Source: a virus
Taxonomy: Duplodnaviria > Heunggongvirae > Uroviricota > Caudoviricetes
Virus record (IMG/VR): IMGVR_UViG_2778261035_000005
Direction: 5' to 3' (one strand)
DNA length: 64,000 nucleotides
In this document: positions 13,999 to 26,806 of the stretch, piece by piece
Layout: every line of letters starts with the position of its first letter
Position numbering within the stretch: position 1 is the stretch's first letter
Position numbers and translations under genes: made by a program
The notes under the pieces: model-generated
The model's input: only the letters and a program-made list of their open reading frames with translations
The model's database searches: none
What the model was told of the DNA's origin: nothing

Positions 13999-14019
13999 AA
14001 TTAAAGTGGAGTGATAATT

Positions 14020-14772
14020 ATGCATTCGTTAGTATTTGCATTTAAAAACATACTCAAGAATGTTATAAACATACTAGGGATGTTAAATATTTTTTTGTCT
14101 GTGAGGGTGAGGAGAAAAGATATAAAAGATAAATTAAAGGAACTTAACAAAGAAAAAGAACAATTAAAAAGCGAAGAAATTATTATTGATTTATACAAGA
14201 AAAAACTCGCATCTAGCAAGGGGAAAGCTAATGATAAAATCAAAGGAAAAATAATTCACTATATTATTGCTAGAGAGTTGGGGAATGATCCTGATAATGA
14301 AGATTTGCGACATAATCTTTTTACAAAGATAAAAGAATCAGAAGAACAGGTTGAAGTTCTGGTTCATCAAAGAGAAGTAAGTGAGCAGGCGAACAAAAAA
14401 GAAACGGTTGTCAATTTATTTTTATTGTATGAAAAAAATAAATTGTTTAAAGCTAAGGGGTTGGCTGTGTTTCTTATAGTTATAAACTTAATTATAGTTG
14501 CGACTCTCGATCTTCCAGCTTGGTCATTGATTATAAGTTTTTTTATTCTCTCTTTGATTATGTTGAAAGATCAGATACTTACTATTCGTGTCTCTAAAGG
14601 ATATTTTGGCACAAGTGCGTATGAAGCGGTTCAATTGCTTAAATTCATCAGAGAAAATTCAGACAAATTTGACTCAGATGATAATGACGGTAGCCCACGA
14701 CGGATATTGAATCCGAAGGGAACAACAAAAAAATCAGACAACCTATTCGATAAAGGGTGGCAAAATGTTTGA
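14020..14772 (+). CDS. Hypothetical membrane protein, AT-rich gene
   Basis: 250 aa; N-terminal TM helix, Lys/Glu-rich coiled-coil-like region, two central TM helices; GGAG RBS before the ATG at 14020; no recognisable family. Confidence 0.55.
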   Translation: MHSLVFAFKNILKNVINILGMLNIFLSVRVRRKDIKDKLKELNKEKEQLKSEEIIIDLYKKKLASSKGKANDKIKGKIIHYIIARELGNDPDNEDLRHNLFTKIKESEEQVEVLVHQREVSEQANKKETVVNLFLLYEKNKLFKAKGLAVFLIVINLIIVATLDLPAWSLIISFFILSLIMLKDQILTIRVSKGYFGTSAYEAVQLLKFIRENSDKFDSDDNDGSPRRILNPKGTTKKSDNLFDKGWQNV

Positions 14773-15187
14773 CCTTGACGCCATCACTAAGTTCTTAAAT
14801 CAGTGTTTTGATCTACTTTTGCTCAAGCAGCCTTTAAGAACTGTTTTCGGAATACTGATTGGTTTCATTATTTTTGTTTTTGTTTACACGTTTAGGTTTG
14901 CGATAGCTCAAGATTTTTATGAAATAGATGGCGTGCATTACGCTGCATGTTTCGTCATCGGTGTTTTAGTTGTTCACACAAGAACATTTTTTGACGTTAT
15001 CAAGGGCACCGCAGTTGATGAAGAAATAGATAGTATGATCAGAGTTATTACGAAGCAGCCACACCTATCTAACCATCAAAAAAACATAATGATTGCTGAA
15101 ATACTTCAAAAAGAAATTGCAGCCATAAGTCAAAAGAGATTGGATAAAGTTGCACAAGAAATAACGGAGAAAAAGACAACTGATTAA
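14765..15187 (+). CDS. Hypothetical membrane protein, AT-rich gene
   Basis: 140 aa with two TM helices; start overlaps the stop of the preceding gene (ATGTTTGA), indicating an operon. Confidence 0.55.
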   Translation: MFDLDAITKFLNQCFDLLLLKQPLRTVFGILIGFIIFVFVYTFRFAIAQDFYEIDGVHYAACFVIGVLVVHTRTFFDVIKGTAVDEEIDSMIRVITKQPHLSNHQKNIMIAEILQKEIAAISQKRLDKVAQEITEKKTTD

Positions 15188-17573: not shown

Positions 17574-18755
17574 ATGAGCCTTTATGTTATATCAACATTT
17601 AGGTTGGTAACAATATTGCCTGTTAAAAGTGGAATTATCGTGAGCGAGCTGAAAGAGTTAATTACCGAATTAGATTTTGAACAATGGTTGGACACTGAAG
17701 GTATCGTTTATCGACGTGGAGGCGTGAGTACTCGCGGTCGTGAAGTGAATATCAAGGAGTGTCCGGTATGCGGCAGCTCCAACTGGAAGGTATATTTCAA
17801 TCTGACCAGTGGCGTCGGTAAATGCTTCGCTGGTGATCATCCCGAAGAGATTCAGTTCAATAAGCTGGTCTTCCTCAAGCACTACAGCGGCAAATCACGA
17901 CGACAGTTCGAGGAATATGTGCAGAACGCCCTTCTTTCCCAGGGGTGGGCACCAAAGAAAGAAGAGCTAGTGCTTGCAAGCACAGTCGAGTTAGAGGGGC
18001 CAGTTGCACTCCCTCGTCATTACGAACTTCCTATAGATGGCCGTCTTCCAGACTATCTGGTTGAACGAAATATATCGCCTGAAATGGCAAAGTATTTTGA
18101 CCTACGATACTGCGTCGAAGGTAAGCACGCCTATGTAGATCCGTATACAGATCAGGTTAAAGGACAGATATTCGATATGCGAATACTGATACCGGTTTAC
18201 GATCTGGATGGGGTAATGAAGACATTTCAGGGACGAGACATTACCGGTACAGCAGAACGCCGCTACCTCTTTCCTATGCAGCTTCCAGCTTCAGGTAAGT
18301 TTCTCTACAACGGCTATAATGCAGTCGGCAAACAGACTGTAGTTGTCTGTGAGGGGGCGTTCGATGTTATGGGGGTTAAACGAGCTATTTTTGACGAAGA
18401 AACATTACGTGATTACGTGGAACCAATAGGAACGTTCGGGATGCATCTATCTGGTAACACCACTCAGGATGCAGAAGATCAGTTAGGCGCGTTCCTGACG
18501 CTCAAGGCGCGTGGGTTACGTAATGTGATCATGATGTGGGATAGTGAAAAGCAAGCTATACGAAACACTATGGCCGCAGCCAGGCGACTGACCAGTATCG
18601 GTCTTAATGTGAAAATTGCATGTTTGGGCGAGGAAGGACTCGACCCCGGCGATGCGACCCCGGGGCAGATTATCAAAGCCTACTATTGCGCAAAACCTTA
18701 CTCACGACAGCTTGAACTTTTAAGCAAGGTAAAAGGCATAGCAGCATTAGTTTGA
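17574..18755 (+). CDS. DNA primase (zinc ribbon plus TOPRIM)
   Basis: CPVCGSS...C zinc-binding motif and TOPRIM-like VVVCEGAFD / MMWDSE; ATG at 17574 follows the conserved RBS context, upstream hairpin at 17508-17532. Confidence 0.7.
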   Translation: MSLYVISTFRLVTILPVKSGIIVSELKELITELDFEQWLDTEGIVYRRGGVSTRGREVNIKECPVCGSSNWKVYFNLTSGVGKCFAGDHPEEIQFNKLVFLKHYSGKSRRQFEEYVQNALLSQGWAPKKEELVLASTVELEGPVALPRHYELPIDGRLPDYLVERNISPEMAKYFDLRYCVEGKHAYVDPYTDQVKGQIFDMRILIPVYDLDGVMKTFQGRDITGTAERRYLFPMQLPASGKFLYNGYNAVGKQTVVVCEGAFDVMGVKRAIFDEETLRDYVEPIGTFGMHLSGNTTQDAEDQLGAFLTLKARGLRNVIMMWDSEKQAIRNTMAAARRLTSIGLNVKIACLGEEGLDPGDATPGQIIKAYYCAKPYSRQLELLSKVKGIAALV

Positions 18756-19892
18756 ACCAGTATTAGTCACGTACACATTGACCGAAAATGATTTAACTTC
18801 TGTGTTGAAGTTGTCAGTCATTACCGCGAGGTAGGCATTCTTGGTATCTCTGAATTGCTTCAGTATGATTTGAACGTTATCGGTGCAAACAAACGAGGTA
18901 GCCAGATTGCCTCCTTTCTCTGAAAAATCCTTCAGGAAGGTGCAGTCAACTTTGCCATCATTAGCGGTGAAGGTAGCATCATCACCCTGCCAGGTAAATG
19001 TAGCGTTAACGCCCTTATCAATGGATTTAGCAATAAGTCGCTGGGTGGCGGATTTTGTTTTGGCTTTGGAAGCCGGCGCTCGATATTTGCCGCTTTCTTT
19101 CAGTTCTGCAATGTAATCACAGCCATTTTTATCTTCTTTATCACAAGCAGCCTGATAAAGCTCAGCTGCTTTTTTATAGTCTTTTTTAACCCCTTCACCA
19201 TACTCATACATAATGCCAAGATTTGTCATGGCATCGGCGTTTCCGAGTTCAGCAGCTTTTTTATACCACTTAATTGCTTCGGCATCGTTGCGTTTAACAC
19301 CTAAACCGTCATCGTATAAGGTGCCTAATGCGAACATGCCATCTGAACTACCTTGATCCGCCGCTTTTTTGTAATAAGTAAAAGCTTTTTTATAACTCTT
19401 TTGTACACCTTTACCATATTGGTAATACGCACCAAGAAGGTAGCTAGCTTTAACATACCCGGCATCAGAGGCTAGATTGAAGTATTTAATGGCGAGCGCA
19501 TGATCTACTTTACCAAGCATCCCCTTTTGATAAATAGCACCAAGATTGTTATAGGCTCTACCTTCACGAGCATCTCCCGCAAGTTTGTAGTACTCAACTG
19601 CTTTATTTAAGTCTTTATCTACACCCTCGCCAAATGTGTACATAACCCCAAGTGCATAATATGCTACTTTGTCTCCCTTTTCTGCAGCGAGATCAATCCA
19701 CTTCTTGGCCTCAACTACATCCTTATCAAAACCATTGATACCATCAAAATAATTTGTCCCTAACTCACTTTGTGCTGCGGTATCCCCTGCGGTAGCGGCT
19801 TCTATCAGCGTTTGTTTATTGTCTGCGTTAACGAATCCAGAGCTAAAAAGCAAAGTTAATGCCAGCAACGATGAAGATTTTATGTATTTCAT
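18747..19892 (-). CDS. Secreted Sel1-like repeat protein
   Basis: Signal peptide MKYIKSSSLLALTLLFSSGFVNA; at least six Sel1-type repeats (A..WY.KAA..G...A...LG.MY..G.GV); C-terminal ~110 aa of unknown fold. Confidence 0.75.
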   Translation of the reverse strand: MKYIKSSSLLALTLLFSSGFVNADNKQTLIEAATAGDTAAQSELGTNYFDGINGFDKDVVEAKKWIDLAAEKGDKVAYYALGVMYTFGEGVDKDLNKAVEYYKLAGDAREGRAYNNLGAIYQKGMLGKVDHALAIKYFNLASDAGYVKASYLLGAYYQYGKGVQKSYKKAFTYYKKAADQGSSDGMFALGTLYDDGLGVKRNDAEAIKWYKKAAELGNADAMTNLGIMYEYGEGVKKDYKKAAELYQAACDKEDKNGCDYIAELKESGKYRAPASKAKTKSATQRLIAKSIDKGVNATFTWQGDDATFTANDGKVDCTFLKDFSEKGGNLATSFVCTDNVQIILKQFRDTKNAYLAVMTDNFNTEVKSFSVNVYVTNTGSN

Positions 19893-20125
19893 ATTTTTTG
19901 TTCTGTTGATATAGGATGAACAGTTTAGACGCGGCAAGTGTCAAGTGTGCGAAAAATGGTACTTAAATTTAGTTAATATGTCAGCTTTGTTGATTTAGTT
20001 TATGGTCGGTAAAGTTACTAGGAAACTAATAACCATAAGAAATAGTACGTCATTTAATTATTGTGGCACTGCTCGTGTTTTGATTAACTAATACCTGCGA
20101 TAAATATAAATAAAGGGAAGCCAAC

Positions 20126-20539
20126 ATGAGCAAAAATAAGCTGATTTTAACAGGAGCTTTATTGTCTTTGTTTGCTTTAGTGGGGTGTAAGCCTACAGAC
20201 GAGAAGGCTATTGCTCTGGGCCAACAAGCAATTGCGGATGATATGAAAGATCCCACGTCGGTGATGTTTAGGAAAGATAAGTTTGTCAGGACTGATCATG
20301 ACGATGGGAGTGTGACAGGCTTTGTGTGCGGAGAATTGAACGCCAAAAATGGCTTTGGTGCATACGTGGGCTATCACTCATATGTTGTTGAACTCGAAAT
20401 GAAGCCAAAGGGCATGTTTTCGAAAGGGGTGGTATACAAAATCCTATCGAAGTCGTTGGCACCTAATGATCCTCATGACTTACAGCGTTATAAGCAGGTC
20501 TACAGAAAGATGTGCAACAGTGAGGCTGTAGCTCATTAA
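20126..20539 (+). CDS. Lipoprotein of unknown function
   Basis: Signal peptide with lipobox LVGC; AAGGGAAG RBS; hairpin follows at 20546-20572. Confidence 0.65.
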   Translation: MSKNKLILTGALLSLFALVGCKPTDEKAIALGQQAIADDMKDPTSVMFRKDKFVRTDHDDGSVTGFVCGELNAKNGFGAYVGYHSYVVELEMKPKGMFSKGVVYKILSKSLAPNDPHDLQRYKQVYRKMCNSEAVAH

Positions 20540-20664
20540 TGGTGAATGCCGGGCAGACTATAAGCCCGGCATCTTCGTATAGGGAACTATTGCGCCTAAA
20601 ATGATAAGTAGATACATACTTAGTTTTTTGTAAGAATACTTTCATCTGTTAGCTAGGAGTTGGT

Positions 20665-21441
20665 ATGAAAGACGAAATTCAGAAATTGGCCTGTGACATC
20701 ATTGATAAAACAGGTTTAGAAATCAGCGAGGGCAGTCGACTAGACATCATTGGAAAGGCCGTCAATACAGCAATGAATCATATCGCTGCTCGTATGGACG
20801 AGATCCCGCTACCAGGGTTGCCTTATCTGAAAGTTGAGTTACACGTATGGGGCGAACCTTCTTGTGCACGGCGTTCTGCATTAGTTGTTTTTATTAGCAA
20901 AGAAAACCCGCTCAGTCTTAAAGTGCAGGTTGGAGCATGGCTTGATGGCAGAGTGATCTACACAAATACCGTTTTTTGTCTTTCAAACGACGAAACTATT
21001 GAAGCGGCCATTCAAGAAGCAGTTCTAGCAATGCGCAGCAGCGGTTTGATGAAGAATAACTACGAAGAGTACTTGCGTTCGATAAGTGGTGAAAAGACAT
21101 TATCTCTGAAAGCAGATTTCGTTACCCCGAAAAATCTGTTGGAAGTTTTGATTAATAAAGGGGCTAATAGTGCCGTAAATGTAATCAGAGAGAGTGAATA
21201 CGCGTCTCTTTGGGATATGTGCAAAAGCCAGTTGGATCTTGTGCATATCGTTGTTGATGCGGGGAAGGCTTGTGATGGCGTAATGGCGGAATTTGCTGGG
21301 AAGATGGTCAGGATTGCTAACGAATTACCGATGATTAAGCAAGAGGCTAAATCATACGCCACCAATCATGTCACAGAGCTTCTTGCCCCTTATCGCTTAG
21401 AAAGCGATCAGCGCAAGATGATTAGCTGGGGAAGTTGGTAA
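20665..21441 (+). CDS. Hypothetical protein
   Basis: 258-aa ORF with AGGAG RBS; no recognisable motif. Confidence 0.5.
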   Translation: MKDEIQKLACDIIDKTGLEISEGSRLDIIGKAVNTAMNHIAARMDEIPLPGLPYLKVELHVWGEPSCARRSALVVFISKENPLSLKVQVGAWLDGRVIYTNTVFCLSNDETIEAAIQEAVLAMRSSGLMKNNYEEYLRSISGEKTLSLKADFVTPKNLLEVLINKGANSAVNVIRESEYASLWDMCKSQLDLVHIVVDAGKACDGVMAEFAGKMVRIANELPMIKQEAKSYATNHVTELLAPYRLESDQRKMISWGSW

Positions 21442-21508: not shown

Positions 21509-21979
21509 GTGAAAGCTGATTTATCAAAAATCCCTTCTATTTCAGGAAATAACGGTTATTCACTTCGTTGTGAGGAAGTAAAGATAAACGGTGAGTCGGC
21601 ATATTGCAGCTATTCCGTTTGCCAGCACACCATTCTTGCCTTCAAAGAAAACCGTCTTCCTCGAACTTCTTTCCAGTCGTGCGCAACCGCTATTAAAGCA
21701 GGCAAATGCAAGGCGTTAAAAATGATGGTTGAAGAGATTCGTAAAGGAGAATCTCTGTATTTCGAAGATATGACCGCACTCATTAAGGAGGTTGAAGAAC
21801 GGAATAAACAAGCCAGAACTATAAAACGAAAACGTGACAGTGTAACGATTAATAGCATGGTTAAGAAGAGCGCCACATCACAAACAGCGATCACTGACGT
21901 GTATGCGGCGTTGCTTGAAGAAACAACAAAAGAAACACATGAGCAAATCGATCAACATATGGAGGCAAAACAACAATGA
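21509..21979 (+). CDS. Hypothetical protein
   Basis: ORF ending in ATGA overlap with the ligase gene; GTG start uncertain. Confidence 0.4.
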   Translation: MKADLSKIPSISGNNGYSLRCEEVKINGESAYCSYSVCQHTILAFKENRLPRTSFQSCATAIKAGKCKALKMMVEEIRKGESLYFEDMTALIKEVEERNKQARTIKRKRDSVTINSMVKKSATSQTAITDVYAALLEETTKETHEQIDQHMEAKQQ

Positions 21980-24888: not shown

Positions 24889-24963
24889 GATGGTGTAGCT
24901 CAGCGGTAGAGCAGTTGGCTGTTAACCAACTGGTCGGTGGTTCGAATCCACCCACCATCGCCA
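24889..24963 (+). tRNA. tRNA-Asn (anticodon GUU)
   Basis: Hand-folded cloverleaf: acceptor GATGGTG/CACCATC, D-arm GCTCAGCGGTAGAGC, anticodon loop CTGTTAA, T-loop TTCGAAT, 3-prime CCA. Confidence 0.8.
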
Positions 24964-24965
24964 AT

Positions 24966-25041
24966 GCCGGTTTAGCTCAGTTGGTAGAGCACCTGCCTTG
25001 TAAGCAGGATGTCAGCGGTTCGAATCCGTTAACCGGCACCA
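24966..25041 (+). tRNA. tRNA-Thr (anticodon UGU)
   Basis: Acceptor GCCGGTT/AACCGGC, D-arm GCTCAGTTGGTAGAGC, anticodon loop CTTGTAA, T-loop TTCGAAT, 3-prime CCA. Confidence 0.8.
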
Positions 25042-25254
25042 ACACAACAGGAAAGAGCATTGAGAACCGCCGAGACTGCCCTGTTTGAAGCGTAAGTCCG
25101 TGCAAACGTCATACAGTGCTCTTTTCGTTGTGGTGAATGCGGCTAAGCGCACGCGGGGAAATGGTTATATTGATCCTTTGTGATGACTATTGGCTCCGTC
25201 CACGGTGGATAACCAGCCAAAGGACACCGGGAAGCACCCGGCACCACAACAATT

Positions 25255-25341
25255 GGAGAGTAGGGAGCATGGTGCTCAAGCGGTCTTGAAAACCGTCCCA
25301 TTGCGCAAGCGATGATGGTTCGATTCCATTACTCTCCGCCA
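25255..25341 (+). tRNA. tRNA-Ser (anticodon UGA), type II with long variable arm
   Basis: Acceptor GGAGAGT/ACTCTCC, anticodon loop CTTGAAA, variable-arm hairpin GCGCAAGCG, T-loop TTCGATT, 3-prime CCA. Confidence 0.65.
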
Positions 25342-25525: not shown

Positions 25526-26806
25526 TTAATTAAAACCGAATGAATCAAGTTCTGCTTTTAATTTATCGACCATTTTTTCAACTTCAACCACAATTTCGCC
25601 AATCACCTTTTCTTTGTGTTGATTAGAGCTAAGTTCAAAATAGGCGTTATATAACGCATAACGAGACAGAAAATTTCTAATCTCATTAGCGGGTCTAATG
25701 GTGTAGCCATCGGTTAACACGATATCGGTCTGTCTAGAGTGCTTCTCGTTGAGTTTTATTAGCCGCTTTATCTGTTTTTCATCCTTGAGCACTATCACTT
25801 TGTTAGCTGCAATTTCAAGCTCCCAGCCGACAAAATAACGCAGCGTAGAATTTAATTTAGCCACTTCCTCGGCTGCAATTTCCATTTTCAGCTCAATGTA
25901 GTTTCGCATATGCATAGGTAGGTCATTAAATCTTTGCAGCAAATGTTGTCGGCAGGGGTTGTTGTAAGACCAAAGAACTGCAAACGTAAGCCTATGATAA
26001 CAGCTTATCGCATTGGTATTACAGGCCGAATCACCAACAATCATGCGATCAACATAAAACTCTACGTCTTTTTGGTATTCTTTATTGAATATATCAGCGG
26101 CATAGGTGTCCAGGTAATGAACTTTAGATATTGCATCTTCAAAGAAAAGTTCATTTTCGAAGAAGTTGTATTTGTTCAGGAGACGATAAAGTTTCTTTGC
26201 GTCGTAGGTTTTGCTATTGTCGACATTAAGACCAAAAATAGCAATCAGCAGACTTACTTTTGGACTAATGCTGTTGCGCAGTTGTTCTATGTAAGATCTC
26301 TTTTCACTATCCGCAGATGACGGCAGATAGAAGTCTTTATCTACATAATTTAGAATTAAAATAATGTGGTTAACATACTTAATATAAACAGGGTTTTTTG
26401 TTGCATAGTAATAAACGCCCTTGACGACTTTTATATTCAATTTCAAATTGTACTGACTATCATCCAGTAAGGTTTTGTTAACATCCTCAAGTAATTTATT
26501 ATGCTGTTCAAGTAATATGCCGTACCATTCCTTAAAAGAAGATTTTTTCATTTCAAGAAGCGAAGCCGCCGTCAGCCTGGTCGCTCTCATTGCCGCCTTT
26601 GCACTATGCCTTGCCTCATAAGCGGCCCATGCTGTGGCTAAAAAGGCAAGTGAAGTAGCAAGCGTACCTATAACCTCTACGTTTTCCTTGACGGTATCCC
26701 AGAAAATAATCATCACTGTCCCAAGTATGAGGATTAACAAAACAGGCATTTTATCAGTGTCTTTGGTTAATTTTGAAACTGAATGATACCTAATCGACCA
26801 TACCAT
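25526..26806 (-). CDS. Hypothetical membrane-anchored protein
   Basis: Up to 426 aa; two N-terminal TM helices and a ~350-aa cytoplasmic domain with no motif I can place; AT-rich codon usage; start may be 26749 instead. Confidence 0.55.
   Translation of the reverse strand: MVWSIRYHSVSKLTKDTDKMPVLLILILGTVMIIFWDTVKENVEVIGTLATSLAFLATAWAAYEARHSAKAAMRATRLTAASLLEMKKSSFKEWYGILLEQHNKLLEDVNKTLLDDSQYNLKLNIKVVKGVYYYATKNPVYIKYVNHIILILNYVDKDFYLPSSADSEKRSYIEQLRNSISPKVSLLIAIFGLNVDNSKTYDAKKLYRLLNKYNFFENELFFEDAISKVHYLDTYAADIFNKEYQKDVEFYVDRMIVGDSACNTNAISCYHRLTFAVLWSYNNPCRQHLLQRFNDLPMHMRNYIELKMEIAAEEVAKLNSTLRYFVGWELEIAANKVIVLKDEKQIKRLIKLNEKHSRQTDIVLTDGYTIRPANEIRNFLSRYALYNAYFELSSNQHKEKVIGEIVVEVEKMVDKLKAELDSFGFN

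Follow-up and report, generated by a model that had tools for sequence, protein, structure and literature searches.

What do the genes lying between the primase and ligase genes of a phage-plasmid contribute to their carrier, and do they belong together? The question is raised by positions 18747–21441 of the window, our term for the whole 64,000-nt stretch of DNA analysed here, from the Caudoviricetes record IMGVR_UViG_2778261035_000005. A first-pass annotation made from the sequence had read three genes in this interval, encoding a secreted Sel1-repeat protein, a lipoprotein and a 258-aa protein, as a single moron-like cluster of lysogenic-conversion cargo. All three open reading frames (ORFs) are present where it placed them. 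We find that the Sel1 gene and the lipoprotein gene are independent, separable cargo at a variable site, while the 258-aa ORF, judged by its distribution, is part of the conserved backbone. Our best overall explanation, two cargo genes whose products go to the cell envelope and probably protect the carrier, is one that we favor with moderate confidence. It blends a structural and evolutionary description with a functional inference, and the two are graded separately below.

A cargo site downstream of the primase gene

Over a 10-kb stretch around the locus, the window is 96.7% identical to Escherichia phage Cyrano (OV696614) and ~80% identical to Salmonella phage SSU5. At the locus itself, 2.2 kb are 100% identical to the E. 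coli plasmid NZ_AP022089.1 (pWP4-S18-ESBL-07_2, 110 kb) and recur at 93–99.9% identity in ~50 further E. coli plasmids of ~110 kb. On the strength of these phage and plasmid matches, we assign the window to an E. coli SSU5-like phage-plasmid, a member of a well-described group (PMC7969092). The SSU5 supergroup draws on a large pool of shell and cloud genes (PMC7969092, PMC3594210), and accessory genes in the variable regions of SSU5-like elements are expected. SSU5-like phage-plasmids occur in ~4% of complete E. coli genomes and the cargo described here in ~1%, the full cargo segment being present in 55 of the 237 complete E. coli genomes with any SSU5 match.

The cargo occupies a variable segment of 1864 bp (18740–20603), delimited by blastn junctions, a survey of the site in relatives and base composition. 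In the blastn alignment, the segment stands where Cyrano has ~30 bp. Identity with Cyrano ends at 18739, within the final codons of the backbone DNA primase gene (17640–18755, plus strand, PGAP coordinates; Toprim_2 and DNAG_N in Pfam), and resumes at 20604; the right junction (20592–20604) is common to SSU5 and to Citrobacter and Enterobacter relatives. The primase and Sel1 genes are convergent and overlap by 9 bp (18747–18755). Since phage-plasmids of Citrobacter and Enterobacter have the same overlap, and since relatives with the insert and relatives with an empty site do not share the last ~5 codons of the primase gene, the association of the two genes is old, and the C-terminal codons of the primase are supplied by the insert. 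The segment has a GC content of 0.41, versus 0.47–0.49 in the flanking replication genes. At third codon positions (GC3), the Sel1 gene has 0.37 versus 0.46 in the primase gene; the lipoprotein gene by itself is not deviant. No direct or inverted repeats beyond chance flank the segment ends, and a transposon- or integron-type insertion of the segment is for this reason unsupported.

Relatives carry diverse content at the same position. Many plasmids of E. coli, Shigella and E. albertii have nothing inserted at the site, their matches spanning ~1.97 kb of a 3.8-kb query, and it holds a Sel1 orthologue alone (417 aa) in Citrobacter freundii and Enterobacter hormaechei. In one plasmid (L003), Tn3 with TEM-1 (blaTEM-1) has inserted into the Sel1 gene and truncates it. 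Another, the E. coli plasmid NZ_CP141793.1, carries Phd/Doc and a chaperone–usher fimbrial operon after its primase gene (L004, 6190–11069). This plasmid matches the window through 18765, and because the final ~19 bp of the Sel1 gene thus remain, its toxin–antitoxin and fimbrial content looks like a replacement of the cargo. SSU5 itself encodes SSU5_041 at the site, a 321-aa protein unrelated to the Sel1 protein, for which a Pfam search gave no family. Judging from these comparisons, we read the site directly downstream of the primase gene as an accessory-gene hotspot of SSU5-like phage-plasmids.

Cells keep about 5.5 copies of Cyrano each, and the phage makes virions (PMC9928086). Because it replicates as a plasmid and yields virions without the segment, the Sel1 and lipoprotein genes are dispensable for plasmid maintenance or replication and for virion production. 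Both are nonetheless functional genes under purifying selection. In the window and five further alleles, which differ by up to 7% at the DNA level, both cargo ORFs are intact in all six, and the ratio of nonsynonymous to synonymous divergence (dN/dS) is 0.14 for the Sel1 repeats (mean dS 0.118), 0.12 for the Sel1 protein's C-terminal part (0.108) and 0.04 for the lipoprotein (0.078), with 0.04 for the primase (0.231). The lower synonymous divergence of the cargo fits a later spread, or recombination, among backbones. That the two genes are independent of one another is seen from their distribution: the Sel1 gene occurs without the lipoprotein gene in Citrobacter and Enterobacter phage-plasmids, and many phages carry a member of the lipoprotein family but no Sel1 gene.

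The third gene behaves differently. The 258-aa ORF (20665–21441, plus strand; PHROG 4248) lies outside the 18740–20603 indel and hence in the backbone. Full-length orthologues (100% coverage, 33–86% amino acid identity) are found in 11 of 11 SSU5-group phage records, syntenic between the primase and ligase genes, and this includes the phages with an empty site. The ORF has no match in PDB, Pfam, NCBIfam or PADLOC, and the LF82 study (PMC9928086) does not list CYRAN_34, the orthologue in Cyrano, with the genes expressed in lysogeny. A 39-bp block upstream of the gene (20600–20638, plus strand), 95% identical in SSU5 amid surroundings of only ~65–80% identity, marks the resumption of the backbone after the cargo. 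By its position and conservation, this block is probably the regulatory region (promoter/operator) of the 258-aa gene or of the replication-module operon. An additional ORF of 156 aa (21509–21979) also precedes the ligase gene.

From its conservation across the group, the 258-aa ORF is a conserved lineage-specific core gene and not a moron. The three genes therefore do not form one cluster. The view of the first-pass annotation that they are cargo, needed neither for replication nor for virion assembly, stands for the Sel1 and lipoprotein genes, which are absent or replaced in close relatives and which Cyrano does without, but it does not extend to the 258-aa ORF, a conserved component throughout the SSU5 group.

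The Sel1-repeat protein and the lipoprotein

The Sel1 gene (18747–19892, minus strand; PHROG 8741) encodes a Sel1-like repeat protein of 381 aa that is predicted to be exported. Its longest reading spans 18747–19937, but translation almost certainly begins at the ATG at 19892 (MKYIKSS...), since the PHROG 8741 alignment begins at residue 16 of that reading and all six plasmids examined have a 381-aa protein in their PGAP annotation. By inspection of the sequence, residues 1–23 (19824–19892, minus strand) form the Sec signal peptide that had been proposed, and it is of the classical type: a basic MKYIK and a hydrophobic core lead to cleavage after VNA and before D, that is, between MKYIKSSSLLALTLLFSSGFVNA and DN. 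In the AlphaFold2 (AF2) model this region is non-helical and has low predicted local distance difference test (pLDDT) scores.

Residues ~24–266 (19095–19823, minus strand) form a Sel1-repeat superhelix. Pfam finds six repeats of PF08238 (E=2e-52; 174 bits versus a cutoff of 30.7), in agreement with the original reading, and the AF2 model resolves 14 helices in about seven hairpins at pLDDT >95. Among orthologues the repeats vary in sequence and number, with ~50% identity between E. coli and Citrobacter and one whole 36-aa repeat present as an indel. The most conserved part of the protein is its C-terminal domain (residues ~283–381; 18750–19046, minus strand), which is beta-rich in the AF2 model. 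In an alignment of 14 sequences across genera, all 36 invariant columns fall within residues 290–373, two cysteines included, and the domain reaches 80% mean column identity in a further alignment (A3). The domain had been described as unassigned, and it stays so: a Pfam search with it gave no family, with only DUF3617 at E=0.16, and a PDB profile search gave no match (best E=0.76).

Similarity to solved structures is of repeat level only. The matches comprise, among others, an Oxalobacter Sel1 protein (6ok3, the best), EsiB (4bwr, the second-best, E=1.6e-65), SEL1L, HcpC and PA5087 (5jkp, E=5e-16), the non-immunity Sel1 structures having E-values of 1e-65 to 1e-75. None of the 32 matches includes the C-terminal domain, their best matched stretches ending by query residue 273. 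The NCBIfam equivalogs MerG, AlgK, MotX and ExoR score 34–77 bits against cutoffs of 330–700, and word-indexed protein searches with the cargo proteins returned close relatives only. A partial PADLOC match of the repeat region to PtuA was rejected as spurious. In RefSeq, the gene is labeled ‘tetratricopeptide repeat protein’.

A pattern scan for the C-terminal domain found five loci among 185,579 species (one genome each), all in Enterobacterales, and the contexts of its orthologues are typical of accessory genes. The domain recurs at prophage ends, where an orthologue comes after genes for tail-tip, tail-fibre and Peptidase_S74 proteins. Others lie in prophage accessory regions, truncated by an insertion sequence (IS), stand alone as an islet of one gene between yciB and tonB in E. 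whittamii, are fragmented in Leclercia, or reside in a Pseudenterobacter orphan-toxin island of CdiA fragments (Fil_haemagg_2, PT-VENN), there not adjacent to a toxin domain. We note that just downstream of the prophage-end orthologue, which comes from a metagenome, stands a second Sel1-repeat gene of 311 aa (L092, 10047–10982). By analogy with the Sel1 genes downstream of vgrG4 in Klebsiella, such genes may travel in small arrays.

The lipoprotein gene (20126–20539, plus strand; PHROG 2320) encodes 137 aa. Its lipobox, given earlier as LVGC, is confirmed in the sequence as ALVGC, with Cys21 and a lysine at +2. Under the Lol sorting rule, a lysine at +2 directs a lipoprotein to the outer membrane, and this is therefore the location predicted for the protein. 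In an exhaustive HMMER search, the family comprised 1346 cluster representatives at E <= 1e-3, most of them 110–140 aa long. A lipobox is present in 43 of 60 family members, and the family has the motifs LKDPxSAxFR and VCGEVNAKNSFGAYxG and a conserved cysteine pair (C68, C130). No Pfam model covers the window lipoprotein or the 60 members, the seven PHROGs that match it are all function-unknown, a phmmer search against PDB found nothing, and its BFVD matches are all uncharacterised; the RefSeq label is ‘hypothetical protein’.

The AF2 model of the lipoprotein (pLDDT 91; predicted template modeling score, pTM, 0.79) has a cystatin/NTF2-like fold, in which a helix packs on four antiparallel strands and is complemented by a C-terminal helix. 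The cystatin, latexin and PepSY inhibitor domains and the VirB8/NTF2-like periplasmic domains with which it may be compared differ from it in sequence, with 7–14% identity and no cystatin motifs (QxVxG loop). Ten family members are longer, and two of these end in a SPOR domain and one in a bacterial SH3 domain. A SPOR fusion of the family is also encoded by phage AUS531phi, and in some phage records peptidoglycan-binding (PG-binding) domains are annotated under the lipoprotein match. Such fusions point to an action at the peptidoglycan layer.

Relatives of the lipoprotein are encoded in at least 426 viral stretches. In ~30 of ~50 viral loci, the next downstream gene on the same strand, across a small gap, is the tape-measure gene, and in 15–17 of the ~50 the three upstream genes encode a tail terminator, a Big_2 major tail protein and a DUF6246 protein. 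P2-like loci make up about seven of the ~50, with sheath, gpD and ogr followed by the lipoprotein homologue; in the P2-like Salmonella phage SEN5, the homologue lies between ogr and int. Fraca and AUS531phi carry it between K-like and I-like tail-assembly genes. A protein that is exported and lipid-anchored cannot act in tail assembly in the cytoplasm. These homologues are moron insertions in stereotyped slots.

Between the two cargo genes lies an AT-rich, divergent intergenic region (19893–20125, GC 0.33) with candidate promoters for both. The element TTGATT, put forward earlier as part of a promoter for the lipoprotein gene, is present at 20080–20085, and the best −10 element, TATAAA (20105–20110), is 19 nt away. 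For the Sel1 gene, the candidate is CTGACA...TACCAT on the minus strand (19984–19956). Just 3′ of the lipoprotein stop, a G+C-rich hairpin with an 8-bp stem and a 9-nt loop (20547–20571, plus strand) is real, as had been claimed (z = −2.6), but it has no U-tract, and the scan did not flag it as a terminator.

Proposed envelope protection and the alternatives

We propose that the post-primase hotspot of this element holds two independent, divergently oriented morons, the products of which would be sent out to the carrier's cell envelope. The Sel1 protein would pass through Sec and reside in the periplasm, where a protein-binding Sel1 superhelix is joined to the conserved beta-rich C-terminal domain. 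The lipoprotein would be sorted by Lol to the outer membrane, with its cystatin/NTF2-like domain facing the peptidoglycan layer. Each protein would bind and neutralise a target that reaches the periplasm or is active there, and the outcome would be a protected lysogen, either by (I) superinfection exclusion against incoming phage tail or ejection proteins or by (II) an immunity-like effect against periplasm-acting toxins. In the case of the lipoprotein, an inhibitor-type fold at the wall, encoded beside the tape-measure gene, would suit a block of incoming ejection proteins or of wall-degrading enzymes. In the Sel1 protein, the conserved C-terminal domain could serve as a fixed anchor and the variable repeat array as an adaptable recognition surface.

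These statements differ in strength. The structural and evolutionary description of the two genes, which draws on insertion and replacement polymorphism, dispensability, separability, purifying selection, recurrence in moron slots of unrelated temperate phages, export signals, wall-binding fusions and the AF2 fold of the lipoprotein, is highly probable. Envelope protection in the broad sense, argued by analogy, is a tentative reading. In its specific form, with the lipoprotein as a large undescribed phage-borne periplasmic family, lipid-anchored or tethered by SPOR/SH3 domains, that blocks incoming ejection proteins or wall-degrading toxins at the peptidoglycan layer, and the Sel1 protein, its C-terminal domain being the anchor and its repeat array the recognition surface, as a phage-disseminated orphan immunity or exclusion factor, the proposal is more doubtful still.

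Several known systems bear on the proposal. With the morons found at hotspots of temperate phages and phage-plasmids, the two genes share presence and absence between near-identical genomes, a lower GC content, separate orientation and intergenic regions, recurrence in unrelated phages and export of their products to the envelope; they differ from them in that promoter and terminator are here candidates only. The closest functional analogues of the lipoprotein would be phage exclusion lipoproteins encoded beside related tail or receptor genes. T5 Llp, the phi80/N15 Cor and TP-J34 Ltp are reportedly of this kind, and Ltp is said to target the tape measure protein. Like them, the window lipoprotein is a small phage-encoded lipoprotein with an expected action at the envelope, and in many phages the genes stand beside tail, receptor-binding or tape-measure genes. 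The window lipoprotein has no match to the family profiles or fold of Llp, Cor, Bor/Iss or TraT.

For the Sel1 protein, the comparison is with type VI secretion system (T6SS) immunity proteins that are built of Sel1-like repeats (SLR). PA5087 (5jkp; PA5086–5088/Tli5b of P. aeruginosa) is a periplasmic Sel1-repeat immunity protein of a T6SS effector (Tle5/PldB). The Sel1 scaffold is common to these proteins and to the window protein, one orthologue of which lies in a toxin/immunity (CdiA) island. In contrast to them, no effector gene adjoins the window Sel1 gene, and the similarity, including that to 5jkp, is of repeat level only. K. pneumoniae Sel1E, a Sel1-repeat immunity protein against VgrG4, has an uncharacterised C-terminal extension (PMC7108748). 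In this it resembles the window protein, and both belong to Enterobacteriaceae.

A number of results weigh against envelope protection. Literature searches found no paper on the Sel1 or lipoprotein genes, nor expression or phenotype evidence for them, and PADLOC gave no significant match to the proteins of the locus. No cognate toxin gene is found nearby in the phage-plasmid, where the Sel1 and lipoprotein genes have for neighbors the primase gene, each other and a backbone gene. The similarity of the Sel1 protein is generic, and its best structure matches, the Oxalobacter Sel1 protein and EsiB, are not immunity proteins. Structure prediction of the C-terminal domain, which the first-pass annotation had suggested as a check, was run by AF2 with 14 sequences and left the last ~100 residues at pLDDT 30–56. 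The promoter scan of the region gave 7 sites versus 6.6 ± 2.7 in shuffled sequences and did not list the TTGATT site, so that the promoter candidates of both cargo genes are not better than chance. Finally, the lipoprotein homologues in tail operons may be expressed late and not in lysogeny.

The cargo might instead serve virulence by lysogenic conversion, with the Sel1 protein released to act on the animal host like EsiB and the lipoprotein conferring serum or host resistance of the Bor/Iss type. EsiB (c5321 of E. coli CFT073), a protein of extraintestinal pathogenic E. coli (ExPEC), is reportedly a secreted Sel1-repeat protein that binds secretory immunoglobulin A (IgA). It too is an accessory Sel1 protein of E. 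coli, and its rank among the structure matches reflects strong similarity, but this similarity spans the repeats only (query residues 26–251), whereas the window protein is defined by its orphan C-terminal domain, covered neither by EsiB nor by any other of the 32 matches. A Sec signal, when no dedicated secretion system goes with it, argues for residence in the periplasm, and the lipoprotein has no Pfam match to Bor, Iss or TraT. Orthologues with the C-terminal domain do stand where lambdoid prophages keep virulence morons. The carriers of the cargo come from humans and include clinical isolates from urine, blood and stool, yet equally they come from soil, wastewater, poultry, pigs and cattle. 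We consider a virulence role unlikely, and envelope protection more likely than animal-host interaction for both genes. A role in the lytic cycle of the phage-plasmid, with expression mainly after induction, is slightly less likely again. Here the proteins would mask receptors or envelope components on lysing cells, in the manner of T5 Llp, so that progeny are not lost to debris, or modulate the peptidoglycan to help ejection or egress; the position of so many viral homologues directly upstream of the tape-measure gene in tail operons (~30 of ~50) and the SPOR and SH3 fusions, which point to the wall, speak in its favor. However, Cyrano makes virions without either gene, the lipoprotein gene of the window is a separate unit beside replication genes, and P2-like phages carry the homologue in the att-proximal conversion slot.

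Two further readings are very improbable. Co-inheritance of all three ORFs as one moron cluster would agree with their adjacency and with the lack of a Pfam functional assignment for any of them, but it is refuted by the comparative data, in which the 258-aa ORF lies outside the indel and is kept in all SSU5-group phages, empty-site ones included, and in which Sel1 and lipoprotein genes occur apart. Equally improbable is that the cargo ORFs are decaying, functionless hitch-hikers. Some copies are indeed truncated by IS or Tn elements or fragmented; against this stand the intact ORFs of six diverged alleles with dN/dS of 0.04–0.14, the 36 invariant columns that the Sel1 C-terminal domain keeps across genera, and, for the lipoprotein, a confident model and a large family with conserved motifs. 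Two envelope-directed cargo genes under selection, with protection of the carrier as their possible role, thus remain the explanation that we prefer.

Further sites in the window and significance

Other positions in the window also deserve mention. A 395-aa ORF (25526–26713, minus strand) lies in a low-GC patch (0.38) directly after a tRNA-Asn/Thr/Ser cluster and matches the Pfam family putAbiC weakly, below threshold (PF16872, E=7.8e-4). Another small gene stands at this position in Cyrano, and next to the ORF RefSeq lists a fragment of a PhoH pseudogene. By its sequence context, this resembles a second cargo site, which may hold a gene of the abortive-infection type. The cluster itself consists of three tRNA genes (24889–25341; Asn-GTT, Thr-TGT, Ser-TGA), of which the Asn/Thr pair is ~91% identical to the pair of phages P1/P7. 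An Rfam scan of the window at gathering thresholds reported two of the tRNAs and nothing else. The lowest-GC kilobase of the window (14001–15000, GC 0.32) lies just downstream of ParA-like partition genes, and two ORFs there, of 250 aa (14020–14772) and 140 aa (14765–15187), have no Pfam match; this kilobase may be further accessory content.

In sum, the locus is ordinary accessory cargo already annotated in RefSeq. Knowing the post-primase site as a cargo hotspot helps in reading SSU5-like elements, in which the same site also hosts TEM-1/Tn3, toxin–antitoxin and fimbrial genes. The aspect most worth following up is the large, unnamed lipoprotein family and its consistent placement beside tape-measure genes. 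If this family is an exclusion or immunity factor, it would represent a widespread, currently unannotated defense at the level of the envelope, with relevance to phage therapy.

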